From Kiritimatiellia bacterium (GTDB lineage: Bacteria > Verrucomicrobiota > Kiritimatiellia > RFP12 > UBA1067): DNA of 64,000 bases. Each line of letters starts with the position of its first letter. The stretch's first letter is position 1. Location of the stretch: assembly GCA_017525225.1 (NCBI GenBank), contig JAFXTB010000178.1, positions 9,660-73,659 on the forward strand, read 5' to 3'. Shown here one piece after another: positions 14,906 through 29,700 of the stretch. The notes under the pieces were generated by a model, which did not search any database, was not told the DNA's origin, and was given only the letters and a program-made list of their open reading frames with translations. The position numbers and the translations under genes were made by a program.

Positions 14906-16088
14906 CTACTTCAGACTCCGCATCGTCATCGTCGTCTTTCGACAGATGCGGATTGGGAACGACACGGACCGTGAACGAACCAGTAGCCGGCGGCAGTTTG
15001 TCCGACGCTCCTCTCGCGGCCACGGACACCCTCCATACACCGGTCGTCATTGGCGTACCTACGATTATCCCGCGTGTCGGAGAGTTGAGTTCCATCCCAC
15101 GCGGCAAACCCTCGCAACTGAATGTTACGGGGTAGGCTTCCGTATTTACCCGCAATGCAAGTTTCTCGCTGTTCCATATCGTCCATTCTACATCCTTCTC
15201 CGGCAGCTTGAGCACAGGCGCCGCACAATCCTCAATGCGGCGGAATACGGCGGCATACCGCCCTTCAGGGTAATGTGAGGCGACCGCCAGCGGATTCATT
15301 CCGTATGCCATCCGCCCATCGGGATACCGCCAACCGACCAGGACCGATCCGGGTTTAGGGGTCGCGTAAAGCCGCACAGCCTTCCCTTCCTTGACAAAAC
15401 GCACATCCGGCGTCATCTTGACCGTTCCCTTTGCGGCCCCCAGATATTCAGCGCCAACAGAAACAGAGAGTTTCGCGGCCTTGACGATCGAAGCGGCCGT
15501 GACGTTCCCTTCAAGCCCTGGCGCACCCTGCACGGAACTCTCCACCGCTCGCATCCATTCAAGCGCCAGCAGCTTTTCCTTGCGTACCCCCATCAGGCCG
15601 TGACGCCCAGGGAAGTTCCGCATTGCCATGGTGCCGTCTTCACGCGTCCAGTACACCCCGACATACGGCACAAGCTCGTTGGCATTGGGCGTAGTCTTCG
15701 CAAGATCGACCGCTTCCTTGCATTCCGACTGCTCCACCATAACGAAATACCAGTTCCGTTTCCGCATCCAGTCCTTCACGGCAACCCCCTTCAGAGCCTG
15801 CTTCAGGCGTACACATAACGTACAGCCCTTCCGAGTCACTACCACCACCACCGGTATATGCGCGGACTCGGCCGCATTGGTGGCCGCGACGAAATTCGAC
15901 GTCCAATCCCCTCGTTGCGCGACGGAACTCTCCTTGGCGTCGGACTGCGCCCGCGCGCCCGACCACGAGACGCGCATGTCCTCGGGGACACGCACGTTGT
16001 TCACGAGGCCAATCGCCACGGACAAGACCGGCAGCGCAATCAACACGCGCCAATCAAGCCCCCACACTCTATACCTTGTCGTCTTCAT
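14892..16088 (-). CDS. Membrane-anchored thioredoxin-fold protein (CxxC) with C-terminal Ig-like domain and acidic tail
   Basis: N-terminal anchor MKTTRYRVWGLDWRVLIALPVLSVAIGLV. The segment VVVVVTRKGCTLCVRLKQAL has a CxxC after a beta-strand, as in thioredoxin-like folds. C-terminal region GLPRGMELNSPTRGIIVGTPMTTGVWRVSVAARG resembles a putative Ig domain. Tail DDDDDAESEVGEVE. Confidence 0.5.
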   Translation of the reverse strand: MKTTRYRVWGLDWRVLIALPVLSVAIGLVNNVRVPEDMRVSWSGARAQSDAKESSVAQRGDWTSNFVAATNAAESAHIPVVVVVTRKGCTLCVRLKQALKGVAVKDWMRKRNWYFVMVEQSECKEAVDLAKTTPNANELVPYVGVYWTREDGTMAMRNFPGRHGLMGVRKEKLLALEWMRAVESSVQGAPGLEGNVTAASIVKAAKLSVSVGAEYLGAAKGTVKMTPDVRFVKEGKAVRLYATPKPGSVLVGWRYPDGRMAYGMNPLAVASHYPEGRYAAVFRRIEDCAAPVLKLPEKDVEWTIWNSEKLALRVNTEAYPVTFSCEGLPRGMELNSPTRGIIVGTPMTTGVWRVSVAARGASDKLPPATGSFTVRVVPNPHLSKDDDDDAESEVGEVE

Positions 16089-16135
16089 CCAGGTGTCATG
16101 AATTTCGCATATTCTAGCACCTCAGACCCCTTTCG

Positions 16136-16924
16136 TCAACCGGCGGCAATTTTCCGTGCGAACTTTCGCCTCAGGAACGCAACGATCTTGCGCGGCCAGC
16201 GCTGGGATTCGAGATGGCGAACCGTCAGCTCCGCGAACGTGAGCCCCTTGGTGCGCACATAGACGTCGAGCAGGCGTTCCGCGACGAAGCCGAAGACGCG
16301 CTTGTCGTATTCGGAATACGACGACACGTCGAGGCGGCGCTCAAGCTCCGAAAGGATGTCGAACAGCCAGGTGCAGTAGCCGTCGAAGACCGGCCGCTTC
16401 ATGACCATCATGTTGAAACGGTGGCCGCTTGTCGACTTCATCACGGCGTCGAAAGCCGCCAGGCAGTCGGGGTGGCGCTCGGCAAGAATCGTGCGCGTCT
16501 CGTCGAGGTCGGCGGCATGGTGCGCATGGACGTACTGCGAATACGTCGTTTCGATGAAATAGTTCCTTTTCTTCGGCAGGAGGACGTTGACCGAAGCGAG
16601 CGCGGCGCACAGTTCCGCGCCGCTCGCCACGCCACGGCGTCCCTTGAAATGGCGGCGATAGTGCACGAGGCCGATGGCCTCGGCGCCCTTCAGGTTCTTC
16701 CATGCCCAGTAGAGCGCCGTAAGCTCGCACCAGCCCTTGTTCTTCGCGCTGATGTTCTCCCCTCCGTCGTCGCGCGCGAAGCCGGGCGGAACCGCCGCAA
16801 CGCCCGAAAGCGCCGCGCCGACAAAGACAGGGAGGTATACCGCGTCCGCAGGCATCGCATACGCCTTGTGGGTCGCGACGACGACTTGCAGATGCTTGTA
16901 GGCGTCAAATGTCGAAAGTCCCAT
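16136..16924 (-). CDS. DUF4422-like putative polysaccharide-biosynthesis glycosyltransferase
   Basis: 262 aa. The motif ELTALYWAWKN...IGLVHYRRHF matches my recollection of the DUF4422 family found in LPS/EPS loci. Not verified by search. Confidence 0.45.
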   Translation of the reverse strand: MGLSTFDAYKHLQVVVATHKAYAMPADAVYLPVFVGAALSGVAAVPPGFARDDGGENISAKNKGWCELTALYWAWKNLKGAEAIGLVHYRRHFKGRRGVASGAELCAALASVNVLLPKKRNYFIETTYSQYVHAHHAADLDETRTILAERHPDCLAAFDAVMKSTSGHRFNMMVMKRPVFDGYCTWLFDILSELERRLDVSSYSEYDKRVFGFVAERLLDVYVRTKGLTFAELTVRHLESQRWPRKIVAFLRRKFARKIAAG

Positions 16925-17110
16925 TCAGCCCTCCCGCCATGAGGCCAACAACCGCTCGTAAACCTCAGCCAATCCGACGCGCGGACGCCACTCGGGCGCG
17001 TCAAGCTTTGCCGTGGCAATGGGCAGGGCTACAACTGCGGGCGCTAGATGGTTGGTTCTCATAACACAATGGCATGTCACGGTTCAAACGGCGAACTCCG
17101 TTTAATTAGT

Positions 17111-18043
17111 TTACCCTGAAAGACCAACCATCTCCACCACTTCGGAACGGTTGCGGCGAATACCTTGCTTATAGTCGCTCCATGCCAGTTTACGGTAGGC
17201 GTTCCCCGCGCGCATTCGACCCGTGATGCTTGCATAAACGCTCTTGGCCAGATTCTTCGCCCGCGCCATGAGCAAGTGGAACCAACCATACTTTGCAGCG
17301 AGCCAGTACTGGTTGCGCGCGTCAAAGTAGCATATCCACGCTCCGGCCTTCGCCGGATTGAACTCTGGATGTTCCACGGTGGAGGTCGTGGTGGCGTAGT
17401 TGTGCCACCCCATACGCGTCACGCGCGTTCCCCACTCGACGTCATCAAAGTGAATGAACACATCCTCCCAGAATCCACATTCCCGAATAGCTTTCTTTCT
17501 GACAAGAAGCGAACATGCCGCAGCAAAATCCACGCGAAAGGTTCTTTTGCCCACATCCGCGAGGCGACTCCCCCTAAGACGCGAGAAGGCGTGTCCAAAG
17601 ATTGGCCAGAAAGTCGCCCCGCATTCAACTATCAAGCCGTTCGCCTGCGGCTTTAAGACCGCCGATCCCACACTGGCCGTATTCGGGTCGCTGGACACAA
17701 GCGCGTCCATGGTTTCCAGTAGACCAGGCAGCGTATCGACGTTTGGTTTCGCATCGTCGTCAAGCAGCCATATACAGTCAGTATCCACATGCTCCCGCAT
17801 AGCGTATTCAACGCCTGCAATGTAGGCGGCGCTACCTCCGCGGTTCTCATCCATGCGGATAACGTGGCAACGCGGTCCCTCCAGCGAACGCAGCCGCGCA
17901 GACAGCACATCTGCGTTTCCATTGTCCACCACGACCAGACGCGCCGTCACGCCGCGCGCGTCCAGCACACCTGGCACGATTCCGAACACATCGTCCCGCG
18001 CATACACCGGAATTACAACCGAGCAGGCGTTCGCTCTTTCCAT
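17111..18043 (-). CDS. GT2-family glycosyltransferase
   Basis: Start MERANACSVVIPVYARDD (ATG 18043). Motifs VVVDNGNAD and WLLDDDAKP (DxD) are present. Confidence 0.7.
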   Translation of the reverse strand: MERANACSVVIPVYARDDVFGIVPGVLDARGVTARLVVVDNGNADVLSARLRSLEGPRCHVIRMDENRGGSAAYIAGVEYAMREHVDTDCIWLLDDDAKPNVDTLPGLLETMDALVSSDPNTASVGSAVLKPQANGLIVECGATFWPIFGHAFSRLRGSRLADVGKRTFRVDFAAACSLLVRKKAIRECGFWEDVFIHFDDVEWGTRVTRMGWHNYATTTSTVEHPEFNPAKAGAWICYFDARNQYWLAAKYGWFHLLMARAKNLAKSVYASITGRMRAGNAYRKLAWSDYKQGIRRNRSEVVEMVGLSG

Positions 18044-18051
18044 GTCACCCC

Positions 18052-19986
18052 CTACCAGCGTTCCTTGCGGCCGAACAGCCGCGAAAAGAACCATCGGACC
18101 GTCCGCCGGAATCCAGAAGACGACAAACGTCCGCGTATTTTAGAAGGCAGGGCCTTTAAGTCTTTGCCTACAGATCTGCACCACCTTCCCCTAGGCAGGC
18201 GCAAGCGGCGCCCTTCCAGCTTTTCTATGCGCCTTTCAAGTTCGTCACACCTCGAATCCGCCATGTCAAAAGCGGAGTACGGACGTCGCTCAGACAGTCC
18301 CCTCTCGATCTCCGCAACCAGCCAGTTGCGACTATCGCGCGCCCCAGTCGCCAATTTCTCGTCCACACGCTCCCAGTCTATCGGCCTTGCAGAATCCAGA
18401 CAGCCGTCAAGTTCCGATATGTCGTACACCATGCGATCCTCGAGACCGAGCATCCGCAGGAGAGACGTGAAGCGGGTCTCTCCGCGTATCTTGTTCACGA
18501 TGGCAAGAAAATCACGGTGGTAGATGATGGCAAAACACATTCCGTGGAAACTGTCCACTATGACAAACCTACTTCCGGCGATATGGGCCAGCCATGTCTC
18601 GGCGGAGGCGTTTTCCAACGTGCGTATCTTCTTCAACTTCCTTCCGGCTCGGTTGGCGTCCACCACCGCCTCCGCCTCCAAGCCCATCCGCTCCGCCACT
18701 CTTGCAAGGATGTCCTCTTTGGCTCCGGAGGGGTCGAGTATGTAGGAGAACAGGTACGGCCTGCCCGAAGGCTTGTCCGGCGCGCGGGAAACCATCTCGT
18801 CGTACTTTAACTTCGGACACAGAAACACTGGGTCGAGCACCCATTTTGCATCGACTCCAAAATCGCGCTTGCACACCTGCACGCCACTGTCTTCGCGCAC
18901 CGAGACCGCATCGAACCGAGAGAGGTAGAACGCCTCCTCCGCGCGATCGTGCTCGCTGCCCCAGATGAAGTCGTGCCCGAACGAACCTGCGTACAGAATC
19001 TTCCTGTGGTTGTCGCGCACATACCCCTGCGCCATGAACTTGCCGAAGATGTTGTAGAGGGAATTGCAGAACAGCTGGTCCGATCCGGTGACGAACACTC
19101 GGCACATACCGTTTACCGCCTTCATGTCCCGAATCGTCGGGAATCGCGGCGCAAGGGCGTGAGCAGGATAGGGCTGGACGGTGAATAGCGGGCATACAAG
19201 GTCCTTCACGCACATGGCGTCGAGCGGACGATCAATCATCAACGCCGAATATCCCATCGCCGTCACCGCCTCGTACAGCGCGTACTGCGTCATGTGGGAA
19301 CCGTAGTTCACACCAAGGTAATTAGCCACCAGACCTACATCCCACATGCCGGTACGCACGTCGTTCACAGCCCGTGAGAACGGCTTGCCCATCCTGCGCA
19401 AGGCGTCGAAACGCGCCATGTCAGCGCCGTCCGCCAGCAGCGACGCGTCGCGGTGAGGACAGGACATGCATTCGGCATCCAAGCCCAGCCCATGTTGTCT
19501 GGCGAATTCGTAGGTTCCCTTGCCGTCACCCCAGAAACGTGGGCCGAAGCTCTCGGGGGGAGCCTGGTCCAACACCTCCTTCGCGCCGGACTTCATCGTC
19601 ACCTGCAGCCGGGTATCAGTCTTCGCGGTAAATTTCTTCGGCGGCAGCACCTTCACATCCGCGATGGAGGAGACATCAAAGTTCCCGGCAAGGAATTCCT
19701 TCAGCGTGGCGCAGGAAGGCAACCCTCCGCATGGCAATGCCCGATAGGAGACTTCGGGCAGTTCCCCGACATCCATCTTGATGCGTTCGATCTCACACGG
19801 ACAGCCTGTCACCTCCACCGACCTACCACCAGACAACGCATGGCGCACGGCATCTGCCGCATTAGAAACATCCGCCCGTACGAATCGCACCGCCGGGGAG
19901 CGCGCATCGAGGGGTCTCTCTGCAAACCGGCACCTAAGATTCGCGTCAAGCGACGCCTCCAGCACAATTGCCTCATGGTCGCTCAT
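18052..19986 (-). CDS. Polysaccharide pyruvyl transferase (WcaK/CsaB family) with about 230-aa Cys-rich N-terminal extension
   Basis: C-terminal two-thirds carries PS_pyruv_trans-like motifs (VANYLGVNYGSHMTQYAL..., FVIVDSFHGMCFAI). The N-terminal extension has CPCE...PCGGLPSC...CMSCPH cysteine clusters. Confidence 0.6.
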   Translation of the reverse strand: MSDHEAIVLEASLDANLRCRFAERPLDARSPAVRFVRADVSNAADAVRHALSGGRSVEVTGCPCEIERIKMDVGELPEVSYRALPCGGLPSCATLKEFLAGNFDVSSIADVKVLPPKKFTAKTDTRLQVTMKSGAKEVLDQAPPESFGPRFWGDGKGTYEFARQHGLGLDAECMSCPHRDASLLADGADMARFDALRRMGKPFSRAVNDVRTGMWDVGLVANYLGVNYGSHMTQYALYEAVTAMGYSALMIDRPLDAMCVKDLVCPLFTVQPYPAHALAPRFPTIRDMKAVNGMCRVFVTGSDQLFCNSLYNIFGKFMAQGYVRDNHRKILYAGSFGHDFIWGSEHDRAEEAFYLSRFDAVSVREDSGVQVCKRDFGVDAKWVLDPVFLCPKLKYDEMVSRAPDKPSGRPYLFSYILDPSGAKEDILARVAERMGLEAEAVVDANRAGRKLKKIRTLENASAETWLAHIAGSRFVIVDSFHGMCFAIIYHRDFLAIVNKIRGETRFTSLLRMLGLEDRMVYDISELDGCLDSARPIDWERVDEKLATGARDSRNWLVAEIERGLSERRPYSAFDMADSRCDELERRIEKLEGRRLRLPRGRWCRSVGKDLKALPSKIRGRLSSSGFRRTVRWFFSRLFGRKERW

Positions 19987-21812
19987 CGCTCCTCCAGCTT
20001 CAAGAACCCGGTCCAGAACTCTCTCGTCGTCATTTCCCGGAACGCATCACGCCAACGTACGTCTACCGCCTTGCGCTCATGTCGCAACCTCCGCACAAGA
20101 TGGAACGCCCTGCGTAATCCCGCGCGCAGCTTGTCACCATTGAAATTCACTGTGTAGGCGTTTCCGGCCTTCGCGCGCAGGAAGGTGACACCGCTGCAGA
20201 GGTACATGTCACGTAGCATCGGTATCCTTCCCTTGTCAAGGACAACAATCTTTGTACGGCCTCCCTGCGGCAGGAAGAGCGTCCAGACGAACAGTCCGCA
20301 TACGATTTTCAACGGGACTTCCATAATTCTTGCGAAAAGCGAACGGCAAGGAGGTGCCTCCGCTACCATTCGGCGCTGCTCATCCGTAAGGGGCACGCAT
20401 TTCTCCTCGTTGGCAAGCGCGTTCATGCGCAGCGACCATGTCGGCTCATGTTCACGAAAGCAGAAGTCCGGCCCGGCCAAAAAGTCTTCAACGCCCTGCA
20501 TTGAACATTCCGCGCTTTCATAGTGTCGCAGCAACAGCAGTTTCACCATGGCAGCGAAGAAACGCGAGGGCGTGGCGATCTTCACGCCGCGCTGTGCCGC
20601 GAAAATCAAGTTGTTGCGCATCCAGAAATACCGCATCGCAGGCGACTGCTTCACAAAGAACGGCTGATGCCACACCGCGAACCCCGCAGGGAACGTAACC
20701 TTGTATCCTCGGTCAATCAATCGAAAATTGAACTCCGCATCATCGTTCTTCAGGAAGTAAGGGAATGAGTATCCAACTTTGCACTCGCGCCAGGCGTCTA
20801 ACGGACACATCCACCACCACCATCCGCCGTAAAGCGGGATCCCGTCATCATCCTCACGAAACACACTCGAAAAATCGCGGGCATCCTTGTTGATGTCGGC
20901 TATCTTCAAAAGTCCCCAGACCTTCTTTGGGGCATCGGGCGATATTCCTGCTCCGCGTTCGTTCTGCGTATACATGTCTTGGTCAAGGCGCAGCATCGTG
21001 GCGTTCACGCAGACGTTGGACTTGATGTAACGGCATGCAAGCCATGCGCGCTCCAATACACCTGTGTGCAACACCAGATCGTCGTCCATCAGCAGGAGAT
21101 GCGTACACGTTTCGTCCTTCTCCGCCAGCATCATTCCGCGCGTGAACCCGCCGCTGCCGCCAGAGTTCACGTTGTGCACGATCTTCACGTCGCCGTCGTC
21201 ACTCTCCTCGAGGGTGTTCCCATTGTCTATCACGAACAGTCTGAACCGCCCCCGCCACTCTTCATCCTCGAACAGCTCCCGGCGCCACCGTTCGATGTTC
21301 GGGAGCACGAAATCCTCGCGCTTGAACGTGCACACGGCCATTGCCAGCTTCGCCTTGCGGCATGGCTCCTCGTCGGTGGAGAACGTTATCCGCCTCAACA
21401 CGGCATCGCCATCTGCCATGAAGCTCAACACGGCCTTCAGCCCGAGGTCTGCCAGAGGAACGGCGCGGAATGCCTTTATCGCCCCCCCCTCCACAGTGGT
21501 TGTGGCCACTGTCCGCCCACTGCCGACCTTGCCTTCCTCTGGCCGATTGTCGTAAGCGATCAAGTCGACACGCATCCGTCCTTCTGCTTCCACAGAAATG
21601 TCGACCGTCTTCAAATCAGTGGAATCGCGCCAGAATTCCGCGTCGAACGCGTTGAAATACGTGTCCGTGCGGCACGTCTGCCCAGTCGTCAGCCGCACCT
21701 CGCACTCCGCCGCGCACAGCTTCCCGTCCGTCCGGAAGTATAGTTCGCCAGGCTGGAAAATGTCGGCCCTCGGGAAAATACATTCTGTCAGCGTGTTATC
21801 TGCCATATTCAT
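19983..21812 (-). CDS. GT2-family glycosyltransferase with N-terminal beta-sandwich-like extension (GlfT2-like architecture)
   Basis: 609 aa. Central GT-A region FVIDNGNT...LLLMDDDLVL (DDD). Size and layout resemble galactofuranosyltransferase GlfT2, which is inference. ATGA overlap with the pyruvyl transferase gene. Confidence 0.55.
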   Translation of the reverse strand: MNMADNTLTECIFPRADIFQPGELYFRTDGKLCAAECEVRLTTGQTCRTDTYFNAFDAEFWRDSTDLKTVDISVEAEGRMRVDLIAYDNRPEEGKVGSGRTVATTTVEGGAIKAFRAVPLADLGLKAVLSFMADGDAVLRRITFSTDEEPCRKAKLAMAVCTFKREDFVLPNIERWRRELFEDEEWRGRFRLFVIDNGNTLEESDDGDVKIVHNVNSGGSGGFTRGMMLAEKDETCTHLLLMDDDLVLHTGVLERAWLACRYIKSNVCVNATMLRLDQDMYTQNERGAGISPDAPKKVWGLLKIADINKDARDFSSVFREDDDGIPLYGGWWWWMCPLDAWRECKVGYSFPYFLKNDDAEFNFRLIDRGYKVTFPAGFAVWHQPFFVKQSPAMRYFWMRNNLIFAAQRGVKIATPSRFFAAMVKLLLLRHYESAECSMQGVEDFLAGPDFCFREHEPTWSLRMNALANEEKCVPLTDEQRRMVAEAPPCRSLFARIMEVPLKIVCGLFVWTLFLPQGGRTKIVVLDKGRIPMLRDMYLCSGVTFLRAKAGNAYTVNFNGDKLRAGLRRAFHLVRRLRHERKAVDVRWRDAFREMTTREFWTGFLKLEER

Positions 21813-21813
21813 G

Positions 21814-23403
21814 TCACCTCAATTCTTCCTTTGACTCTATCGCCTTCGCCACGGCAATGTGGAACCCCGACCTGTCGAGTTCCCTGAAAAAAGTTTCTCG
21901 TCCAGGTGATTTCCGGGTGGGACGTATCAACTGTCCATTCTTGCGCCTCGCCTCCATAAGCGGCACTGCGCGCCAAAGCAACATCGCCTCGCGGATGCGC
22001 GCCATCGCCGCTTCGCCGCGCTGCGTGTTCGGCAACACCAGCGACGTGCCTTTGCCATCCGAGAGCGCCGAGGCTATCTGCGTGCATCCCCAGCAGTCGC
22101 CGAGTGAAATGTCGCCAACGCGTTCAATCCCGGCGTACCTGCACGTGTAGCAGCATTCACGACTCATGACCCCCTTCAGGAAAGCATAATACCAGGCAGA
22201 AGCACCCGCCGGCACGGCCACAGTACCCTCCTCCGTGTAGATCACCGCCGGCGTCGCCCAACCGAACGGTCGCTTGTCTCGGAAATTTACGCCCGTCAGC
22301 TTTCGGCCGGCGGCATACTCCTTCAGGAAAACGTTCCACGCGGTCGCCGGATTAGCGCCGTGGCACACTATGTCCGCGGTCAGGAGATTCTCGTAGTCCC
22401 TCCCCAGGAAGGAGTACAGCCCCGCAATCTGGCATGGACATCCGGTGAAGAGGACCGGCATCCCGGCGTCGAGATCTTTCTTCGCGTCGCGGTACGCGAA
22501 CGCTATTTCGCTTTGCAGGTATTTACTGCCCCGTATGCGGGAAAGGCCAGCCTCGTCCGTAGCGCGAACGAACACGACACGGCTCCAACGCCCATCTGCC
22601 CACGTGGCGCCGTAGACCGAGCCGCCCTGCGCAAACACATCGCGCGCCAAGAGCGAGACCATGCCGCCGGACGAGCTGACGGCGCGCGTGGCGTCGTCCG
22701 CCATGGCCGCATAGGCCCGAGGCACTGGATGGAGCGGCGGCGGATTGACGCATGGGCACGCCTTAAGGCATAAGCCGCAATTGATACATCCATCCTTAAC
22801 TTTCGGGAAGAGGAACCCCTCTGGCGAAGGTTCCATCGCTAGAGCATCCTTCGGGCATTTGTTCGCACACGCTCCGCATCCGGTGCATCGGTCTGGATTC
22901 ACTATCTTCACCGACTTGTCGGCGCCGTCCGGCGGAGCGAGCGTGGCAGGGGGAGTCGGAGGCAGTGCCACGGGCTTCCGCCTGCGCAGTCTGGCTGCGA
23001 CCCTGCTCTTCAGCTTCTTCAGGAGAACTCGCGCCTTCCGCAGGGCACGCCGCCACAACGGCGGGCGTGGCGGCGGCGGATGGGGCCGCGAGACGAAAGC
23101 CTCGAGGAATTCCGGCTCGAGCGTCCTCCCGGAGTCCAGATAAAACACCAGATCCCCAGACGCGTTGAACTTCCCAACGCGGCACATCGCTTCCCTCGTG
23201 CAGCGGCCGAGCCGCAGGATCTTGACTCGCGGATCGCGAGCTGCGTACTCCAAGCAGACGGCGGCGGTATCGTCGGTCGAGCCACCATCGACGCATAACA
23301 CCTCGAAGTCGCGCAACGTCTGACGCCGCAACGAGTCCAGGCACTCGCGCACCTGCCCTCCACAATTTCTCATGGCAACTATCACCGAAACCCTGACCGG
23401 CAT
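21814..23403 (-). CDS. Fusion protein: truncated GT2 N-terminal half + Pro-rich linker + 2x[4Fe-4S] ferredoxin + coenzyme F420 hydrogenase/dehydrogenase beta-subunit (FrhB/FdhB) C-terminal-like domain
   Basis: Residues 1-105 VSVIVAMRN...VLCVDGGSTDDT...YLDSG form a GT2 A-half only. Then a PHPPPPRPPLW...PPTPPATLAPP linker. Then CTGCGACANKCP and CINCGLCLKACPC ferredoxin motifs. Then CHGANP...CYTCRY...DISLGDCWG, typical of FrhB_FdhB_C. Confidence 0.6.
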   Translation of the reverse strand: MPVRVSVIVAMRNCGGQVRECLDSLRRQTLRDFEVLCVDGGSTDDTAAVCLEYAARDPRVKILRLGRCTREAMCRVGKFNASGDLVFYLDSGRTLEPEFLEAFVSRPHPPPPRPPLWRRALRKARVLLKKLKSRVAARLRRRKPVALPPTPPATLAPPDGADKSVKIVNPDRCTGCGACANKCPKDALAMEPSPEGFLFPKVKDGCINCGLCLKACPCVNPPPLHPVPRAYAAMADDATRAVSSSGGMVSLLARDVFAQGGSVYGATWADGRWSRVVFVRATDEAGLSRIRGSKYLQSEIAFAYRDAKKDLDAGMPVLFTGCPCQIAGLYSFLGRDYENLLTADIVCHGANPATAWNVFLKEYAAGRKLTGVNFRDKRPFGWATPAVIYTEEGTVAVPAGASAWYYAFLKGVMSRECCYTCRYAGIERVGDISLGDCWGCTQIASALSDGKGTSLVLPNTQRGEAAMARIREAMLLWRAVPLMEARRKNGQLIRPTRKSPGRETFFRELDRSGFHIAVAKAIESKEELR

Positions 23404-23425
23404 TCCAACGCTCCCTTCCTAGTCG

Positions 23426-24169
23426 TCATGCCTTGTGGAGAAACGCCTGGTACCTCTCGCACACTCCGGCCACGTCGGAGGTGAACTCCATCTGCTTACC
23501 ATGGTTCAGCCACAATATCTTGTTACACAGCTTCTGCACCTGAACAAGCGAGTGGGAAACCAGTATCGTCGCTACGCCGCTGTGTATGATTTCAAGGAGT
23601 TTCTCCTCGCTCTTCTTGCGGAACTCGACGTCACCCACCGAGAGCACCTCGTCCAGAATAAGAATGTCCGGCCGCACCATGGACGCCACCGAAAACGCCA
23701 AGCGGGCTCTCATCCCCGACGAAAGCTGTCGGAATGGACGGCCCTCAAATTCGCGCAGCCCCGAGAAGTCGATTATCTTATCGTATGCGTCATTCATGAA
23801 CTTCCGCGTATAGCCAAGCATTGCCCCGCGCAGATATGCGTTCTCTTTGACCGTCAAGTCCTTGTCGAATCCAGAGGTCAACTCCAACAGCGCCGCAATC
23901 CTTCCATGCACACGTACCGATCCCTCCACCGGCTCCAAGATACCCGAGACCGCCTTGAGCAGCGTGGACTTCCCTGCCCCATTGGCGCCAATAATTCCGA
24001 GCATGTCACCCCTGTTCAATGCGAACGTGATGCCGCGATCTGCCCAGAACTCCTTCGCGCGATATGTACCTGTCAACTTTCGGATGACGAACTCCTTAAG
24101 GCCAATGCCCTTGAAATCCCCTACCATGTAGCGGATTCCGACACCCTTGAGTTCTACGAGCGTATTCAT
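23426..24169 (-). CDS. Polysaccharide-export ABC transporter ATP-binding protein (Wzt/KpsT/TagH family)
   Basis: Walker A GANGAGKST, signature LSSGMRARL, Walker B ILILDEVLSVGD. Adjacent to an ABC-2 permease. Confidence 0.85.
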   Translation of the reverse strand: MNTLVELKGVGIRYMVGDFKGIGLKEFVIRKLTGTYRAKEFWADRGITFALNRGDMLGIIGANGAGKSTLLKAVSGILEPVEGSVRVHGRIAALLELTSGFDKDLTVKENAYLRGAMLGYTRKFMNDAYDKIIDFSGLREFEGRPFRQLSSGMRARLAFSVASMVRPDILILDEVLSVGDVEFRKKSEEKLLEIIHSGVATILVSHSLVQVQKLCNKILWLNHGKQMEFTSDVAGVCERYQAFLHKA

Positions 24170-24172
24170 TTC

Positions 24173-24994
24173 TTAGACGTAATATAGGAATTTGGTATTG
24201 AACTTCTTGTACATAACACTTCCGACAAAGAGGAAAAACAGCGCCCACCCCGCAAGGATGGCATGGTGTCCCAAAGATGGAAATGCTCCGTCAATTGTGA
24301 CCTTGCGGAAGTATGCAATAAACATGTAGATCGGATTGCACATATACACTCTCTTCCAGCTCTCGGGAAATTTCTCTATGGAATACATCACCGCAGAGCC
24401 ATAGAAGAGAAGCCGGGTGAAGACACTCCAAAGGTAGGCCATGTCGCGAAAAAACACGTATAGTGCCGAAAGGACTAGTCCCAACCCAAGATTGAAAAGC
24501 ATAAGAACTACTATCGGATACAAAAGGAGAAGGAAATGCCATCCGAACCGGATTCCGTCAATCGCGCAGAAGCCAAAGAAGACAGCTAGGATGATCAGGA
24601 AGTTCAAAGTCGTTTGCGCCGTTTTCGCGAAAAGGAAAAGGTACTTGGGCACGTTGACCTTGGTGAATATGCTGGCATTCTCCATCAACGACACCATCCC
24701 CCCGCCCACTGCCTCGTTAAAGTACAGGAAGACCACTTGCCCGCAGAAGAGGTAGATGGTATAGTGGGGAATGGACTTGCCGAAGAATTGTCCAAAAACG
24801 AGTTTGAGCACAAGCAGCAAGAGTAGCGGCGAAAGCACGCTCCATCCCATGCCCAGAACCGTACGCTTGTATTTCTTCTTGAAATCGCGCTTGACCAGTT
24901 CCTCGAACAGGAAACGATGCGCCAAAAACACCCTGACCGCGCGGCGGACAGGTGTCTCATTCAACGGAAGGACTTGTCTCCCAAATACTTTCAT
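24173..24994 (-). CDS. Polysaccharide-export ABC-2 permease (Wzm/KpsM/TagG family)
   Basis: 273 aa with six TM helices. ABC-2 family pattern (VKRDFKKKYKRTVLGMGWSVLSPLL). Lower GC (about 48-50%). Confidence 0.75.
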   Translation of the reverse strand: MKVFGRQVLPLNETPVRRAVRVFLAHRFLFEELVKRDFKKKYKRTVLGMGWSVLSPLLLLLVLKLVFGQFFGKSIPHYTIYLFCGQVVFLYFNEAVGGGMVSLMENASIFTKVNVPKYLFLFAKTAQTTLNFLIILAVFFGFCAIDGIRFGWHFLLLLYPIVVLMLFNLGLGLVLSALYVFFRDMAYLWSVFTRLLFYGSAVMYSIEKFPESWKRVYMCNPIYMFIAYFRKVTIDGAFPSLGHHAILAGWALFFLFVGSVMYKKFNTKFLYYV

Positions 24995-25271: not shown

Positions 25272-26111
25272 TCACACCCCGAAATTCGTGAACTTGATCT
25301 GTCGAACAAGAGCCTTGAAATAATCCCGACTCCATATCTTGAGTTCGGAGATATTCTCGATGAACGGCTCCACGTCTTCGCGCGCGGAATTGAAGTCGAT
25401 CGAGTCAATGCGCGCATCAAACGCGGCGACGACGGCCTCCGGGGTGCTTAGATCCACACCTGGCCCGCTTTCCTTCCCACGTTCCACGAGATGCGTCAAG
25501 TCCAGTTCGGCACCTCGCGAGACATACCAGGCCATGTCATACCAGTCACGGCCCTTCACACGGTTCTTCCACTTCCGGAACAACGCCGCGCTTGCCTTGC
25601 CCGCATAAAGACCGGGAAGGTCGTAGATTCTCACCCAGCACGACGACGGACGGACCAGCAGCTTCATCTCCGTATTGAACCTCGGAGGAGGATCAATATC
25701 CACCTCCAATTTCACCTTGGGGCGCTTCTCCGTCGTGAATCCGATGTCATACACGTCGGACGATTCCTTGAGGAATGCGCTCTCGATTGAATTCGGGCGC
25801 CCCTTTCGCTTCGACTTGATCTCAACTTCCCTGCCGGCAAGCCGGAACTCGTCCTTTACCGCTTCAAAGTAGTCCTCAAATGCAAACGATGGATCCGGGG
25901 CTAGAAGCGAAAAATACATATCCTCGGAGAACCTCTCCAATCCATGAAAAAGATGGAGGCATGTTCCGCCATAGAAAGCGGCCTTGGAGAAGAATCCTCC
26001 GCGGGCCAATCCCGCCAACGCAACCTCCTGCATCACCTCGTAGACGGCATTTTCCTTCTCGTTCACGGACTTGACCTTGTACGCCTCAACCATTTCATCG
26101 AACAATGTCAC
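25272..26111 (-). CDS. Nucleotidyltransferase AbiEii/AbiGii-family toxin-like protein
   Basis: 279 aa. N-terminal region (YEVMQEVALAGLARGGFFSKAAFYGGTCLHLFHGLERFSEDMYF) fits the AbiEii/DUF1814 nucleotidyltransferase fold pattern (GGT...D-x-D-like). ATGA overlap with the upstream small gene. AT-richer than flanks. Confidence 0.65.
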   Translation of the reverse strand: MTLFDEMVEAYKVKSVNEKENAVYEVMQEVALAGLARGGFFSKAAFYGGTCLHLFHGLERFSEDMYFSLLAPDPSFAFEDYFEAVKDEFRLAGREVEIKSKRKGRPNSIESAFLKESSDVYDIGFTTEKRPKVKLEVDIDPPPRFNTEMKLLVRPSSCWVRIYDLPGLYAGKASAALFRKWKNRVKGRDWYDMAWYVSRGAELDLTHLVERGKESGPGVDLSTPEAVVAAFDARIDSIDFNSAREDVEPFIENISELKIWSRDYFKALVRQIKFTNFGV

Positions 26112-26578
26112 GTGAATATCCTTTCCAACGCCTTGAACAGGCCGTACTTGCGTCCTGAAGCCGCATAGGCGGAGAAAACGCCTATGTCGGGATTTTCAAA
26201 TGCATCAAAATCAAATCGCACATCATTCTCCAGATACATGCGCAGCGAACGCGGCGACGAGATGCGAAGCCGAGACCGTGAATCGATAAAGTCGCACAAT
26301 GCCTTCTCCGGTCCCGCGACCATCGCTCCATCAACGCTTCTGACGCCGATGGCAAAGGTCGCCACAGGCACTGTACGGTATACAAAGCGTCCAACAGGCG
26401 TGACGAACCGCTTTCCCCGTGCTGTCACCGCCGAAATCGTTTCCACTACGCGGTCTGGTATCAGACCATATTCCGCCAACATCGTCTCGAAAGAAACATA
26501 TGAGACGGACCGTAAAGCAGATTGGCGACCGTTCAGGCGCGGCCCATGTGTCGAACCCTTTTCAGGGACTGTCCCCAA
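26108..26578 (-). CDS. Putative cognate antitoxin/autoregulator of the AbiEii-like gene (AbiEi-like or DUF6088-like; short form)
   Basis: Positional partner overlapping the toxin start by 4 nt. 124-156 aa depending on start: TTG 26578, or ATG 26482 (MLAEYGLIPDRVVETISAV...). The reading frame opens only at 26623, so no longer N-terminal wHTH domain is possible here. Homology is not verified. Confidence 0.4.
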   Translation of the reverse strand: MGTVPEKGSTHGPRLNGRQSALRSVSYVSFETMLAEYGLIPDRVVETISAVTARGKRFVTPVGRFVYRTVPVATFAIGVRSVDGAMVAGPEKALCDFIDSRSRLRISSPRSLRMYLENDVRFDFDAFENPDIGVFSAYAASGRKYGLFKALERIFT

Positions 26579-26776: not shown

Positions 26777-29700
26777 TTATTGGATGAATAAAGCGGCGCC
26801 GTTAGGAGCGATCACCCCTTCCTGAATATCGTACCAATCATCGTCTTCTTCATCGTAATAGCTTCCAGACGGCGTGTATAGGAACTGCAAATCAACCGCC
26901 ATCCCGCCAACAACGAAAGTCGCCAGTGCGCATTTGTCATGGACAAAGCGAACCACGGTCGTCGCACTCACCTTTTTCGAGCCAATCTTGCCCGCCAGTG
27001 TCGCAATACCAGTATCGGAAACTTTAATTGACACAGGGAACGATGTCATGCCATAGACACAATATCTGCAGAAAAGACTGTAATCGCCATTTTCCCTAGC
27101 TACCGCCAATTTCTGCGTCCCCAGCTTGCTCAGCAATTTGGCGATGTGTCCGGCACTTGCATTCAGGTATTTCTTCTTGCTGTTCTTGCCGTATGGATTC
27201 CGCACGGCGTACGCCCAGACGATGTCGGTGCACAACCCAGACGACGGCTCTGGCTGGTAAGAGCCTTCAAGAGCCGCCTCGGTGGCGTCCCACGCCAAGG
27301 ATGGTTTGATCGATATCTTCAGCTTCTTCTTCCAGCTGACAAGAGTGGCACTGTAGACACCATCGTCGTCTATGGAAGACCACTTGCTAGCGGCAAATGT
27401 AGTTGATCCAAGCTTGGCCGAAATCTTGCCGTCGCTCTTGACAACCACCTTGAAGACATGCACTTTATCCGTTATGGCAGTGTAGCGGCGTCCAACATCC
27501 TGATTGTCTCCCTCTTCCGAATCGTCATAACCGCAATCCTCACAGTCATCGTCGTCATAATCGTCATCATCGTCATCGTCAGCATCCCATGGCGTAAATC
27601 CATAATACCCTGATGTATACCCGTAACTATGTGCGGCAATCCATGAACTGTCCTTCGAGGCGAAACCGTTAAACGTTCCGACCACCGCCGAAGGCAGGGC
27701 AACGGCCTTGATCTTGATCTTGAAGGTCCTCGACCATCCCCATTTGTTCGTAAGTTTTATCGCCACGGTGCTCGTACCCGCCTTGCGCGGCACCCCGCTG
27801 ATCTTTCCGCTCTTGTAGGCAAGTCCGCTCGGAAGACCGCTCACCTTGACCGTCGCGGACGAACCGGACACGCCGGACATGCCGGGCGTCGCGGTGAGCG
27901 CGAAAGTCTGCTGTACGCCCACGCGCACGGTCACCGTTGCGCCGGACGACGTCACTGTCGTGGCGTTTTCCGCCGACGTGCCGTTTACGCGCGCCGACAC
28001 GGACACGGTGAATCCGGGATTCTTCGCCACGATCTTGATCGTCTTCTTGGCTGTCCCCTTGGAGTTCTTCGCCGTGATCGTCACCTTGGACGTCCCGGGC
28101 TTCTTCGCCTTGCCGGTTATCTTCCCGCCCGAATACTTGAGCCCGGACGGAAGCCCCTTCACCGTTACGGTCGTCTTCTTGATGGTCGACAGCACTGTGA
28201 TCGGAATGCTGCAGGACTGCCCCGGAATCACTGTATAGGAACTATCGCAGTAGATGGCCGGCTTGGGCTTGGGGGCAGGCAGCGTGCCCGCTAGCTCGGC
28301 AGCCACGCGAAAGCCTAGGTTCTCGTAGGTGTCGGACGGGTATACGGTATCCGAGCCGTCCCAGTACCAATATTTCTTGTCATAGCTCTCGCTCCATGAC
28401 GCACCGCACATCATTTTCGATTCGTCTGCGCTGGAATTCGGCCCGACAGGATCCGTGACCGCCTTCGTGACGTTCCATTCCCAATCCAGAGTCCATTCCG
28501 ACACATTTCCATACATGTCGTAGATTCCCCAGGCGTTCGGCGCGTAGGATCCGACCTTCGTATGTTCGCCGTACCCGCCCTTTCCGTCATTCGCGTTTTC
28601 AGGGATTCGTCCGCACGACGTCACGTTAACGGTGCTCCCGCCGCCTGCGCGGAAGGCATACTCGCCCTGCGCCAGCGTGGGCAGGTCCACCGAAACGCCC
28701 GACCGGGCGCGGAGACGTCCGATGAACGAATTCGCATCGACAGTCCTCACCGCCGGCCAGTTGTATGTCCGCACATTGCCGCGAATGGATTCCCACGAAA
28801 CGCGCTCCACTGGGCGCGTATCTCCCCTGTAGCGCGACGGATTCTGCCCCGTCACCAGTTCGTACTGCTTCTGCGTCACCTCGAATACGCCGATGTAGTA
28901 CGGCTTCGTGATCGAGACCTTGTACGAGCCGATGACGGTCGGCACCTCGTTACCATAATCATCCATATCCCAATCTACATCATCCATCATGAAACTGCCC
29001 GCCTCCACCTTCTTCAGCACCAGTTTGGTCGTCTTGTATTCATCCGTCCAGCCGCCGGCGGGAATGGCATCAAGATATGTAACCGGGTATTTCGACGCGC
29101 TCGCGCCTGTCGAGAGATCGATCACGCAATACGTACCAGATGTGGGAGTTGTCGGTGTCGTGCTGGCGTTCCAGTGGGCGTAGTACGTCACGTTACCGGT
29201 AACCTTCGTGGACGTCGATATCTTCGTACCGCCGCTCGCAGCGGTCCACCACCCGTCAAACGTGTACCCGCTCCGCGTCGGCGTCGGCAGCGTCCCGACC
29301 GCCGAACCGCTGGCGACAGACCGCGTCGTGCCGCCGCATCCCCCGTTCGCGTTGAACGTCACCGTGTAATAATCTCCACTACCAGCCAATGTCACGCCGC
29401 TCGCCGGATCGCCAACAAGCTTGAATGCCGAGGAATCAAAGGATGCATACGAACCTTCTGCAACAGAGAACTCCAATCCGGCTTCGCCCAATCCATTCAC
29501 ATGAAGCAATCTAATACTGTAAATCCCAGCAGACGGAAAGCTTACGGTCATCAAATCTGTACTCATTGCTCCACTGGAAGAAGAATGGAATTCACGAGAA
29601 ACTCCAGTGCCACTAATTGTTGCAGAAAATACATCGTCACATCCACAGGCAAAAGTCCATTCTCCGGCCCGTGGAACATATATTGATGTTGTCGCATCCA

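Follow-up and report, generated by a model that had tools for sequence, protein, structure and literature searches.

A ferredoxin-FrhB reductase bearing half a glycosyltransferase, and its probable pyruvyl transferase partner, in a Kiritimatiellia polysaccharide locus

A 64,000-nucleotide stretch of Kiritimatiellia DNA (the window) contains a 529-aa ORF that joins part of a family 2 glycosyltransferase (GT2) to an iron-sulfur reductase module, in a glycan locus that also encodes a polysaccharide pyruvyl transferase (PvT). The locus raises the question of what the reductase does there and what half a glycosyltransferase is doing on it. A sequence-only reading had described a half-GT2, a di-cluster ferredoxin and an FrhB_FdhB_C domain in a single ORF, and had proposed either a redox partner for ketal-pyruvate chemistry or a deletion that welded two genes. 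The ORF list and Pfam bore out this layout: Glycos_transf_2 matched residues 6-105, the Fer4 dicluster families 167-218, FrhB_FdhB_N (PF04422) 231-300 at 27.8 bits (cutoff 22) and FrhB_FdhB_C (PF04432) 317-474 at 65 bits (cutoff 23.3). The same ORF, letter-identical, was found in assemblies of three separate samples, so that the frame cannot be put down to misassembly. The three other contigs carrying it represent one strain (99.99% nucleotide identity), and a population comparison was uninformative. GC and GC3 are much alike along the whole ORF, junction included, and thus give no hint of a very recent foreign graft. The genes around it, wzm and wzt included, are tightly packed, with intergenic gaps of 3-22 nt or overlaps, and scans for promoters and terminators gave nothing above chance level. 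The 529-aa gene is real and has the architecture first described; the features of the locus are listed in Table 1.

Table 1. Features of the locus, in positions of the window
Feature	Position	Strand	Basis
wzm, ABC-2 exporter gene, upstream	24173-24994	-	Pfam ABC2_membrane
wzt, ABC-2 exporter gene, directly upstream of the 529-aa gene	23426-24169	-	Pfam ABC_tran
Shine-Dalgarno-like AGGAAGGGAG	23411..23420	-	7 nt 5' of the ATG at 23403; read from sequence
529-aa ORF: GT2 half, linker, 2x[4Fe-4S] ferredoxin, FrhB_N/FrhB_C	21814..23403	-	ORF list, Pfam, AlphaFold2 mean pLDDT 91
N-terminal nucleotide-binding half of GT-A/GT2 fold, b1-b4 + a1-a4, residues 1-105	23089..23403	-	PF00535, model pLDDT 88-97, structure superposition
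Degenerate DxD, D90-S91-G92 (DSG)	23128..23136	-	Alignment A1
Linker, residues 106-165, 14 Pro, net charge +15	22909..23088	-	Composition, hydrophobic moment; low pLDDT at 106-116 and 141-165
Cationic amphipathic helix LWRRALRKARVLLKKLKSRVAARLRRRK, residues 116-143	22975..23058	-	muH 0.72; helix predicted at 117-140
2x[4Fe-4S] ferredoxin domain, residues 166-222	22738..22908	-	Fer4 Pfam families; alignment A3
Complete FrhB-type flavin/[4Fe-4S] module, residues 223-520	21844..22737	-	PF04422, PF04432, A3, Foldseek
GlfT2-like glycosyltransferase, 609 aa, between reductase and transferase genes	19983..21812	-	Pfam Glft2_N, GT2, GlfT2_domain3
644-aa PvT with relic FrhB module	18052..19986	-	PF04230 at residues 289-498
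Relic FrhB_C, residues ~30-200 of the 644-aa protein	19387..19899	-	BLASTP, alignment A4; predicted folded
Full-length GT2, 327 aa, downstream in gene string	17111..18094	-	Pfam; 93% identical L004 ortholog

The ferredoxin-FrhB (Fer4-FrhB) module was examined in a family alignment of 39 sequences, query included (A3). Both CxxCxxCxxxCP motifs of the ferredoxin domain are present (C173/176/179/183-P and C206/209/212/216-P), their eight cysteines are invariant or nearly so in A3, and Fer4, Fer4_7, Fer4_9 and Fer4_10 all scored above their cutoffs. The FrhB part contains SSSGG (243-247), SKY (293-295), GCPCQ (321-325), CHG (347-349) and C418/C421. S243-G247, S293-K294-Y295, C324, C347, C418 and C421 occupy invariant or nearly invariant columns, and all family invariants are kept. 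From family knowledge, not from a liganded structure, we take SSSGG and SKY to be the flavin site and C324, C347, C418 and C421 to be [4Fe-4S] ligands. Residues 166-520 were modeled with a pLDDT of 95-99, and Foldseek matched the FrhB-like 8riu_B/8rja_E (E~5e-14), 6qgr_B, FrhB 4ci0_C, 7bkb_E and 7-hydroxymethyl chlorophyll a reductase (HCAR, 5dqr), with E values from 5e-14 to 2e-10. The scores for NCBIfam FpoF and FrhG fell far short of their cutoffs. Against an ortholog from a second lineage (L004; residues 326-527 only, 74% amino acid identity), dN/dS is about 0.16, and this C-terminal third of the module is, by that measure, under purifying selection.

The module belongs to a large family. 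An exhaustive HMMER search returned 7,175 representative clusters at E<=1e-30, mostly fused to PvT. The closest relatives of residues 162-520 are colinear single chains of 750-870 aa, 47-53% identical, that carry Fer4-FrhB and PS_pyruv_trans; the databases label such proteins '4Fe-4S dicluster domain-containing protein' or 'coenzyme F420-reducing hydrogenase beta subunit/polysaccharide pyruvyl transferase WcaK-like'. The clusters come mostly from gut and rumen bacteria. Fusions such as P0002, P0003 and P0007 have the Cys and flavin motifs and the polysaccharide-locus setting in common with the 529-aa protein, which differs in having a 160-residue N-terminal appendage and no PvT in its chain, the latter being a separate gene two positions downstream. 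In the searched literature we found no biochemistry of family members and no paper in which FrhB and pyruvyl occurred together. At the family level, these comparisons strongly support the Fer4-FrhB module as a functional redox partner of PvT, and this part of the earlier proposal stands.

At the present locus the two activities lie on separate chains. The 529-aa protein stops 9 residues past the FrhB module, no PS_pyruv_trans follows in the same chain, and a GlfT2-like gene begins 2 nt on. PvT had been taken for the downstream neighbor; in fact the GlfT2-like gene adjoins (its orthologs are 77% identical in L004 and 38% in the syntenic locus L006) and PvT comes second. The PF04230 match of the 644-aa protein scored 91 bits (cutoff 25.3), 28/28 invariant columns of alignment A7 are retained, and the model has a GT-B-like fold with Pvg1p (5ax7) among its Foldseek matches. 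The Cys-rich N-terminal extension that had been noticed on this protein is indeed present and is homologous to FrhB_C: residues 34-186 pair with 137-275, the FrhB_C part, of the fused Fer4-FrhB-PvT protein P0003 (BLASTP E=3e-7), GCPC motif included. GCPCE, PCGG and FW..GDGKG are kept, and Fer4, FrhB_N and SSSGG/SKY are absent. The canonical CxxC position has no Cys, and both orthologs conserve an ECxxCPH that is out of register. One of these, P0140 (61% identity), shares the architecture of the whole protein, and the two relics are 50% identical with pN (0.36) below pS (0.74). Since the best 50 Foldseek matches listed for the 644-aa model were all GT-B folds, the identity of the extension is drawn from sequence. 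By this homology, it is a relic of the transferase's own FrhB module.

The only intact Fer4-FrhB at the locus is therefore in the 529-aa protein and the only intact PvT in the 644-aa protein, and their nearest relatives are discordant. Fusions whose FrhB is at least 45% identical to the 529-aa protein (n=117) have a PvT just 34% identical to the 644-aa protein; those whose PvT is at least 40% identical to the 644-aa protein (n=55) have an FrhB just 36% identical to the 529-aa protein (r = -0.31). The closest full-length relatives of the 644-aa protein are the complete fusions P0141, P0143 and P0145 (38-41% identity across ~90% of its length). These comparisons indicate that the intact reductase and the intact transferase stem from different sub-lineages of fused genes. 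Simple fission of one Fer4-FrhB-PvT ancestor was rejected on this discordance, and reciprocal domain loss is favored over a single weld. Most likely, the locus would once have carried two fused genes and retained one good copy of each activity. In the syntenic locus L006, wzm and wzt are followed, farther along, by a GlfT2-like gene and a complete Fer4-FrhB-PvT, and a separate FrhB gene is absent. The split layout also occurs in L004, which has the FrhB gene tail, the GlfT2-like gene and the relic-bearing PvT. The L004 and L005 contigs begin inside the orthologous FrhB gene, the one ortholog known, with its N-terminal part outside the contigs, and scans of GTDB genomes and JGI metagenomes for this N-terminus found distant matches only (30-46%); the source MAG apparently does not serve as a species representative.

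The 529-aa reductase probably works with the nearby PvT that lost its own reductase. As for what the pair makes, the reduction of an enolpyruvyl ether is more likely than support of ketal formation because the latter needs no redox step; on this point the earlier proposal of ketal-pyruvate chemistry fared less well. In the MurA/MurB pathway, enolpyruvyl is transferred to UDP-GlcNAc and then reduced to a lactyl ether in a flavin-dependent step. Comparably, PvT would transfer enolpyruvyl from PEP onto a sugar hydroxyl. Electrons would enter via the two ferredoxin [4Fe-4S] clusters and pass to the FrhB [4Fe-4S] cluster and the flavin, which would reduce the enol-ether C=C; the product would be a lactyl (1-carboxyethyl) ether, not a pyruvate ketal. 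HCAR and the ferredoxin-dependent 8-vinyl reductase BciB likewise draw on ferredoxin instead of F420: their Fe-S clusters hand electrons to a flavin, and the flavin reduces a small organic group, which in BciB is a vinyl C=C. HCAR has an FrhB fold like that of the 529-aa protein (E~1e-10), but HCAR and BciB are only 13-15% identical to it in sequence, act on other substrates and lack a fused 2x[4Fe-4S] domain like the present one. FrhB, FdhB and FpoF, the F420-reactive beta subunits of methanogen hydrogenase, formate dehydrogenase and Fpo, have the Pfam domains, fold, and flavin and [4Fe-4S] motifs in common with the 529-aa protein, which differs in lying outside a hydrogenase or dehydrogenase complex and in being encoded in a glycan locus. 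The folds of MurA and MurB are unrelated to those considered here: PvT is GT-B-like (5ax7) and not MurA-like, and FrhB does not resemble MurB. Electrons would come from ferredoxin or Fe-S and not from NADPH. A PEP-derived enol ether that becomes a lactyl group, as proposed here, occurs both in MurA/MurB and with the FbiB nitroreductase domain that reduces dehydro-F420-0 (PMC6801904, PMC6450877).

Published work on polysaccharides of other bacteria bears on this chemistry by indirect correlation. Klebsiella K8, K22, K37 and K66 have pyruvyltransferase genes and yet a capsule without pyruvate (PMC4616057 text and Table S2). The pyruvyltransferase gene is paired with a 'nitroreductase' in K22 and K37 and with a 'coenzyme F420 hydrogenase' in K66 (PMC4616057). 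A title cited in PMC3857182 places 4-O-[(S)-1-carboxyethyl]-GlcA in the K22 capsule. The occurrence of a 234-Da sugar in Campylobacter, suggested to be glucolactilic acid, follows that of a pyruvyl transferase gene in the pgl operon (PMC13232197). The K66 pair, wcqF and HG203, resembles the present genes in being adjacent, separate PvT and flavoreductase genes in a polysaccharide locus; wclZ and HG127 of K22 and K37 show the same pairing, with the lactyl ether in K22, and differ in that the partner is not an FrhB protein. These Klebsiella cps loci are Wzy-dependent and enterobacterial, and they are likened to the present ABC-transporter-dependent locus by gene annotation and not by sequence. 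The K37 capsule reportedly has a lactyl ether as in K22. The K66 capsule is said to contain a lactyl-ether sugar. Against the proposed chemistry, the link between FrhB and lactyl groups depends on this one capsule type, and the partner in K22 and K37 is a nitroreductase.

Overall, we think it reasonably probable that the 529-aa ORF encodes a stand-alone ferredoxin-FrhB reductase with a non-catalytic N-terminal appendage, that the locus arose by reciprocal domain loss and that the chemistry with PvT, as we infer it, is enolpyruvyl-to-lactyl. Another explanation, which we consider rather unlikely, is that Fer4-FrhB acts otherwise, on another pathway substrate such as a keto-sugar, with F420, or in a redox-sensing or structural role in ordinary ketal pyruvylation. 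The chemistry of the FrhB family is varied (F420 reduction, the sulfite reductase Fsr, HCAR), assays of members of the present family are absent from the searched literature, and in P0394 the Fer4-FrhB module is joined to a methyltransferase with no PvT. However, PvT is the dominant fusion partner even though ketal formation from PEP requires no redox step, and the Klebsiella types with PvT and flavoreductase genes have capsules without pyruvate, with a lactyl ether in K22. Use of F420 in particular is disfavored, since neither gut Firmicutes nor Kiritimatiellae are known to make it and the presence of a ferredoxin domain in the chain suggests that electrons enter through Fe-S clusters.

The second part of the question concerns the GT2 half. 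Its PF00535 match (65.1 bits, cutoff 23.3) covers profile positions 1-101 of 168 only, and its model fits the first ~103 residues of 5hea_A (0.7 Å) and of SpsA (1h7q). After residue 105 come the Pro/Arg-rich linker and then the ferredoxin, and the C-terminal acceptor-binding half with the catalytic base is missing. Only ~60 residues separate residue 105 from the ferredoxin and, therefore, the truncation is real. A GT2 C-terminal half or paralog was sought in the other frames and elsewhere in the window and none was found; a simple frameshift hiding the remainder was rejected since no other frame continues the GT2. The domain had been said to end right after the DxD region, and its end does fall just past the DxD strand, although the motif has degenerated. 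In alignment A1, position 92 is Asp in 15/15 other GT2 sequences and Gly in the 529-aa protein, which reads DSG where 5hea reads DSD. G40 stands where SpsA has D39 (D/N in the other A1 sequences, except G in P0135), and R12 takes the position of SpsA Y11 (Y/F/H in the others, with C, K, R or Q in four). By comparison with SpsA, the Y11 and D39 equivalents are presumably nucleotide contacts, the D39-type Asp contacting uracil, and the DxD Asp presumably binds metal. The GT2 half is almost certainly non-catalytic, judging from the cut after strand 4 and the DSG reading of the DxD. Most likely, it is a dead leftover on an intact iron-sulfur/flavin reductase.

Fusion of GT2 to this module is not in itself peculiar to the locus. 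The best 150 representative clusters include six GT2-Fer4-FrhB-PvT and three GT2-PvT-Fer4-FrhB proteins, whose longer GT2 matches reach profile positions 102-144 of 168. A full-length N-terminal GT2 on Fer4-FrhB-PvT thus recurs naturally (P0259, P0260 with an added GT8, P0292, P0348, P0375 and P0403). As in the 529-aa protein, GT2 is N-terminal to the ferredoxin in these proteins; they differ in that the GT2 match runs to profile positions 116-140 of 168 and the ferredoxin has ~300-450 residues N-terminal to it, with PvT after. The DxD is intact in P0259, P0292 and P0375, which were checked, and P0348 reads NGND, in contrast to the DSG of the 529-aa protein, where GT2 stops at residue 105. Relatives with the fusion and an intact, full GT2 therefore exist as distant homologs (36-49% FrhB identity), but none is orthologous and the domain boundary is unmoved. 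For the structure model we used alignment A6, in which the triple fusions form the bridge, in place of a combined alignment (A2) that wrongly matched GT2 sequences to the FrhB region. A word-index query of residues 1-164 gave only weak GT2 matches (<=43% identity), none with FrhB; it also missed the protein itself, so this negative is weak, and the exhaustive HMMER run superseded it. The half-GT2 fusion is a single-lineage variant of a known, uncharacterised protein type.

The GT2 half may be the remnant of a P0259-like GT2-Fer4-FrhB-PvT ancestor, or it may come from a GT2 gene that lay upstream and was joined to the reductase gene through a deletion. P0259 (1190 aa) is the best non-self match, with 49% identity in the FrhB module. 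Descent from a triple fusion is suggestive only, because the GT2 half is 39% identical to that of P0259 and 38-43% identical to some stand-alone GT2s. The proposed deletion that welded two genes fits the truncation and the loss of key motif residues, but the recurrent full GT2 fusions and the reciprocal loss make for a history richer than one weld.

A selected function for the appendage must also be weighed. The linker had been called Pro-rich and is so, and residues 106-165 have no similarity to any other part of the window. The hydrophobic moment of its helix is the highest within the 529-aa protein, and this basic amphipathic helix may keep the reductase at the membrane, the site of ABC-transporter-dependent glycan assembly. 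The GT2 half and linker could be a repurposed domain that docks the GlfT2-like enzyme or the relic-bearing PvT, tethers the protein to the membrane, or retains some nucleotide-sugar binding and so presents a UDP-linked substrate to the reductase. The good Shine-Dalgarno at the ORF start means that the appendage is probably translated. The half-GT2 is a self-contained b1-a1...b4-a4 unit and is predicted to be well folded, but its high pLDDT is driven by the alignment of full-length GT2s and does not imply that the half alone is stable. The helix and linker charge also agree with a retained role, as do the amphipathic tails that end the fused relatives and that the stand-alone reductase lacks. 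GT2 beside Fer4-FrhB is recurrent, so physical coupling may matter. However, all three of the best-conserved nucleotide- or metal-contact positions are substituted, and no second half-GT2 fusion was found among the best 150 representative clusters or the best 120 word-index matches. We consider repurposing to be unlikely, somewhat more so than another role for Fer4-FrhB.

A leftover GT2 half could also be bypassed altogether if translation of the reductase started internally near residue 161-167, leaving the fragment as an in-frame untranslated or separately translated pseudogene remnant. The start Met of the homologs pairs with A161 (MDKNIKIV vs ADKSVKIV), GTG codons lie in frame at V145, V164 and V167, and a junction in frame by chance has a probability of one in three. 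We find this explanation improbable: on inspection of the sequence these GTGs have no Shine-Dalgarno-like site at proper spacing while the ATG at 23403 has one, no stop codon separates the GT2 and reductase parts in the ORF list, and the position of the ancestral ATG is now GCC. That the whole ORF is a decaying, functionless chimeric pseudogene, as its one truncated and mutated domain and its single-lineage architecture might suggest, is scarcely credible given the preserved Fer4-FrhB invariants, the low dN/dS against the 74%-identical ortholog fragment, the open frame of 529 codons in a closely packed gene string and its place as the sole intact reductase module at a locus whose PvT lost its own.

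Under the preferred explanation, a stand-alone reductase with a non-catalytic appendage, the half-GT2 is probably evolutionary debris and the oddity itself is modest. The locus is a natural dissection of a very abundant family, with reductase and transferase on two chains. Each gene keeps only the module that the other lost, which argues that the two activities are obligatorily coupled. The locus also illustrates the remodeling of polysaccharide gene clusters by mosaic recombination and by complementary loss of domains. More tentatively, and with less confidence than in the reading of the locus itself, Fer4-FrhB and PS_pyruv_trans, fused or split, could be a general ferredoxin-dependent route to lactyl-ether sugars in bacterial glycans, represented here by a two-chain enzyme whose relic FrhB_C, GT2 half and helix would act as docking or tethering elements. 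The locus also bears on an old gap, the origin of the lactyl-ether sugars in many O-antigens and capsules. Such ethers are established chemically for E. coli O58, O124 and O150, and other bacteria that make them include Butyrivibrio fibrisolvens, Proteus and Nostoc; S. boydii 17 and E. coli O124 have two glucolactilic-acid genes, wfeP and its partner. If the general route is real, Fer4-FrhB and PvT would form a MurA/MurB-like pathway made of unrelated folds.

The sequence-only reading had placed half of a GT2 domain, a di-cluster ferredoxin (Fer4) and an FrhB-like C-terminal domain in a single ORF and had named a domain search as the check. All three were detected by Pfam in the 529-aa ORF, above the curated cutoffs: Glycos_transf_2 at residues 6-105 (profile positions 1-101 of 168 only), 4Fe-4S dicluster families at 167-218, FrhB_FdhB_N at 231-300 and FrhB_FdhB_C at 317-474. 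The identical protein was found on contigs of three different samples, which represent one strain (99.99% nucleotide identity); an assembly artefact therefore does not account for the reading frame. The sequence AGGAAGGGAG lies 7 nt before the ATG, which itself follows the wzt stop by 22 nt. The ORF belongs to a tight minus-strand gene string (wzm, wzt, 529-aa ORF, GlfT2-like glycosyltransferase, 644-aa polysaccharide pyruvyl transferase [PvT], GT2 and DUF4422) that resembles an ABC-transporter-dependent glycan locus. The PvT, previously described as the immediate downstream neighbor, is actually the second gene downstream, after the GlfT2-like gene. The 529-aa ORF represents a truncated form, confined to a single lineage, of a multi-domain family that is recurrent but uncharacterised.

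Features of the glycan locus and its surroundings in the window
Feature	Positions	Strand	Basis
DUF4422 protein	16136-16924	minus	
644-aa PvT	18052-19986	minus	
GlfT2-like polymerising glycosyltransferase	19983-21812	minus	
Fused ORF, 529 aa	21814-23403	minus	ORF list and Pfam
AbiEii-type nucleotidyltransferase toxin, 279 aa	within 25272-26578	minus	PF08843
1642-aa protein	26777-31705	minus	Beta_helix, Laminin_G_3, Flg_new, FGE-sulfatase (precomputed Pfam)
DDE_Tnp_1/DUF772 transposase	31949-33067	plus	

The Fer4-FrhB module of the 529-aa protein is intact. Across 39 family members, query counted, the eight ferredoxin cysteines, SSSGG, SKY, C324, C347, C418 and C421 were invariant or nearly so. 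The module was modeled at a pLDDT of 95-99, with structural matches to FrhB-like subunits of F420-reducing complexes, FrhB, FdhB and plant HCAR, and the PDB sequence matches of the protein include the N-terminal part of Fsr. An ortholog fragment covering residues 326-527 only was 74% identical, with a dN/dS of ~0.16, and at least the C-terminal third of the module is under purifying selection. Residues 162-520 share 47-53% identity with the N-terminal 360 residues of 750-870-aa proteins that continue into PS_pyruv_trans.

When 1.84 billion representatives were searched exhaustively with HMMER, 7,175 clusters matched at E<=1e-30. Most of the best 150 carry an N-terminal Fer4-FrhB followed by PvT; counts from length and match columns gave ~27 stand-alone proteins of ~340-480 aa and ~36 in which the module lies inside the chain. 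Of these 150, 23 were scanned with Pfam, which showed GT2-Fer4-FrhB-PvT (P0259, P0292, P0348, P0375 and P0403, and P0260 with an extra GT8), GT2-PvT-Fer4-FrhB (P0291, P0295 and P0393), PvT-Fer4-FrhB (four examples and P0390), GT4-Fer4-FrhB-PvT (P0296), Wzt-like ABC_tran-Fer4-FrhB-PvT (P0281) and methyltransferase-Fer4-FrhB (P0394). Since GT2-Fer4-FrhB occurs in several relatives, GT2 ahead of the module is recurrent. Orthologs with the same fusion and an intact GT2 had been set as evidence against the proposed domain boundary; such fusions do recur, but as distant homologs, and the GT2 match of the 529-aa protein is still shorter, ending at profile position 101 compared to 116-144 of 168 in GT2-bearing fused relatives, except P0295 (102). 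No second half-GT2 fusion was found among the 150 best clusters or the 120 best word-index matches. Among the relatives compared by sequence, only this strain combines a truncated, mutated GT2 with the lack of a PvT after the module. In other organisms, Fer4-FrhB is joined to many different partners (P0281, P0296, P0394, P0358 and P0276), including a Wzt-like ABC ATPase, a GT4, a methyltransferase and a second relic FrhB_C; another fusion is a 1782-aa protein with three PvT stretches and an epimerase-like region. Within glycan loci, Fer4-FrhB acts as a highly mobile module.

The GT2 half is dead as a glycosyltransferase. It was said to end right after the DxD, and the domain is indeed truncated, after strand 4 and one helix, but the motif itself is degenerate. 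In an alignment with 14 GT2 relatives and SpsA, the second Asp of DxD is G92, giving DSG, whereas 15/15 others have Asp; the alignment to PDB 5hea agrees (DSG compared to DSD). G40 is D or N, and R12 an aromatic residue, in most other aligned sequences; G40 aligns with SpsA D39, a residue in contact with uracil. AlphaFold2 modeled residues 1-105 as b1-a1-b2-a2-b3-a3-b4-a4 (pLDDT 88-97), and this model overlays the N-terminal ~103 residues of GT-A enzymes at 0.7-1.0 A. This confidence derives largely from the alignment of full-length GT2s and, thus, does not prove that the half is stable alone. Neither a GT2 continuation in other frames nor a paralog of the half within the window was found.

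The anticipated Pro-rich linker between the GT2 half and the ferredoxin was confirmed at residues 106-165, with 14 Pro and a net charge of +15. Within it, LWRRALRKARVLLKKLKSRVAARLRRRK has the top amphipathic moment of the protein (muH 0.72) and is predicted by AlphaFold2 as a helix flanked by two low-confidence stretches. The start Met of homologs aligns with A161 (MDKNIKIV compared to ADKSVKIV), so everything upstream of residue 161 is an addition to the ordinary N-terminus; no ribosome-binding site was found for in-frame GTG codons near that residue. By default, we read this appendage as tolerated baggage. Another possible explanation is that the strongly cationic modeled helix serves as a membrane tether or docking element. 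Fused relatives have amphipathic tails after the PvT domain, and the 529-aa stand-alone reductase has no such tail.

The PvT domain of the 644-aa protein is intact by Pfam, family invariants and predicted structure. Its Cys-rich N-terminal extension, also noted earlier, is homologous to FrhB_C: residues 34-186 align to that part of fused proteins (E=3e-7). This relic retains GCPCE, PCGG and FW..GDGKG and is predicted to fold; the protein has no ferredoxin, FrhB_N or flavin motifs. The canonical CxxC position holds no Cys, and an off-register ECxxCPH is kept in both orthologs. The closest full-length relatives are complete Fer4-FrhB-PvT proteins (P0141, P0143 and P0145; 38-41% identity over ~90% of length). 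P0140, an ortholog at 61% identity, has the same truncated architecture. Its PvT domain is 68% and its relic 50% identical, with pN (0.36) below pS (0.74) for the relic; the constraint that retains the relic is thus relaxed but still real.

Contig L004, from the related lineage carrying P0140, shares the order of the window (FrhB-gene tail, GlfT2-like, relic-PvT, GT2 and DUF4422) and, therefore, the split layout is older than the divergence of the two lineages. Between window 14892-21812 and L004:620-7563, identities were 93% for GT2, 92% for DUF4422, 77% for GlfT2-like, 63% for a 398-aa protein and 61% for PvT; such sharp gene-to-gene differences in divergence indicate recombination within the locus. 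In the more distant syntenic locus L006, wzm and wzt are followed by two inserted genes, the GlfT2-like gene and, last, a complete Fer4-FrhB-PvT of 779 aa; a separate FrhB gene is absent there. An AAA_21/RloB pair (OLD/Abi-like defence module; L006:5941-7874) sits between wzt and the GlfT2-like gene, at the position of the FrhB gene in the window.

Where the FrhB of a fusion reached 45% identity or more to the 529-aa protein (n=117), identity of its PvT to the 644-aa protein was only 34%; where the PvT reached 40% or more to the latter (n=55, P0141 included), the FrhB was only 36% identical. Across fused proteins, the two identities correlate at r = -0.31. The pattern supports a history in which two fused genes of different clades were once in one locus and then underwent reciprocal loss. 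The clade-A copy would have retained the reductase while its PvT and the greater part of its GT2 disappeared, and the clade-B copy would have retained PvT and lost the ferredoxin and flavin half. An earlier suggestion was a deletion that welded two genes; the truncated, mutated GT2 agrees with a deletion, but the discordant ancestry points to reciprocal loss between two fused genes. The GT2 half could have come from a triple fusion like P0259, the best non-self match to the 529-aa protein (39% over GT2 residues 1-105 and 49% over FrhB), or from a GT2 gene that was resident behind wzt; at 39%, P0259 is no closer to the half than some stand-alone GT2s are. Simple fission of one fused gene is disfavored because the nearest relatives of the two intact modules are discordant.

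Within the polysaccharide locus, wzm and the giant surface-protein gene flank the AbiEii gene and a 156-aa ORF upstream of it; the two overlap by 4 nt, the ORF had no Pfam match, and together they resemble a type IV toxin-antitoxin module. The 1642-aa protein contains a striking poly-Asp/Cys stretch, DADDDDDDDYDDDDCEDCGYDDSEEGDNQD, and the GC content of its region is ~0.50-0.55 compared to ~0.64 in the flanks. The transposase adjoins a Polysacc_synt (flippase-like) gene, according to the gene calls of contig L001, and the edge of a low-GC glycan island (~14-32 kb, GC 0.50-0.61) may be marked by an IS element. Together, the GlfT2-like gene and DUF4422, which has been linked to galactofuranosyl transfer, hint at a glycan containing galactofuranose.

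The proposed redox partnership with the PvT is supported at the family level, where the reductase is recurrently fused to PvT, but ketal pyruvylation from PEP itself requires no redox chemistry. A role beyond ketal formation is proposed because thousands of lineages join a flavin/Fe-S reductase to PvT. For adducts derived from PEP, the redox reaction with a precedent converts an enolpyruvyl ether into a lactyl ether by reduction, as carried out by MurA/MurB and the FbiB nitroreductase domain (on dehydro-F420-0); BciB and HCAR are FrhB-family enzymes that reduce a vinyl or hydroxymethyl group with electrons from ferredoxin. By analogy, the chances are roughly even that PvT and Fer4-FrhB make a 1-carboxyethyl (lactyl) ether. 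PvT would form an enol ether from PEP, electrons would run from the two ferredoxin clusters through the FrhB cluster to the flavin, and the flavin would reduce the enol-ether C=C.

In the searched literature, no paper mentioned FrhB together with pyruvyl. Klebsiella K8, K22, K37 and K66 have pyruvyltransferase genes and capsules without pyruvate (PMC4616057), and the partner gene is annotated as 'nitroreductase' in K22/K37 and 'coenzyme F420 hydrogenase' in K66 (PMC4616057, Table S2). According to a title cited in PMC3857182, K22 carries 4-O-[(S)-1-carboxyethyl]-GlcA. A 234-Da Campylobacter sugar, for which glucolactilic acid has been proposed as the identity, correlates with a pyruvyl transferase gene of the pgl operons (PMC13232197). 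Two glucolactilic acid genes are genetically defined in Shigella boydii 17 and E. coli O124. The literature on these bacteria fits the lactyl-ether proposal. 'Another glycan' in the K22 title is presumably K37, and the link of K66 to the model is based partly on its capsule structure, which probably includes a lactyl-ether sugar. The main interest of the locus is that reductase and transferase appear to have been naturally separated through reciprocal domain loss, and the testable lactyl-ether hypothesis would extend to the Fer4-FrhB/PvT family as a whole.
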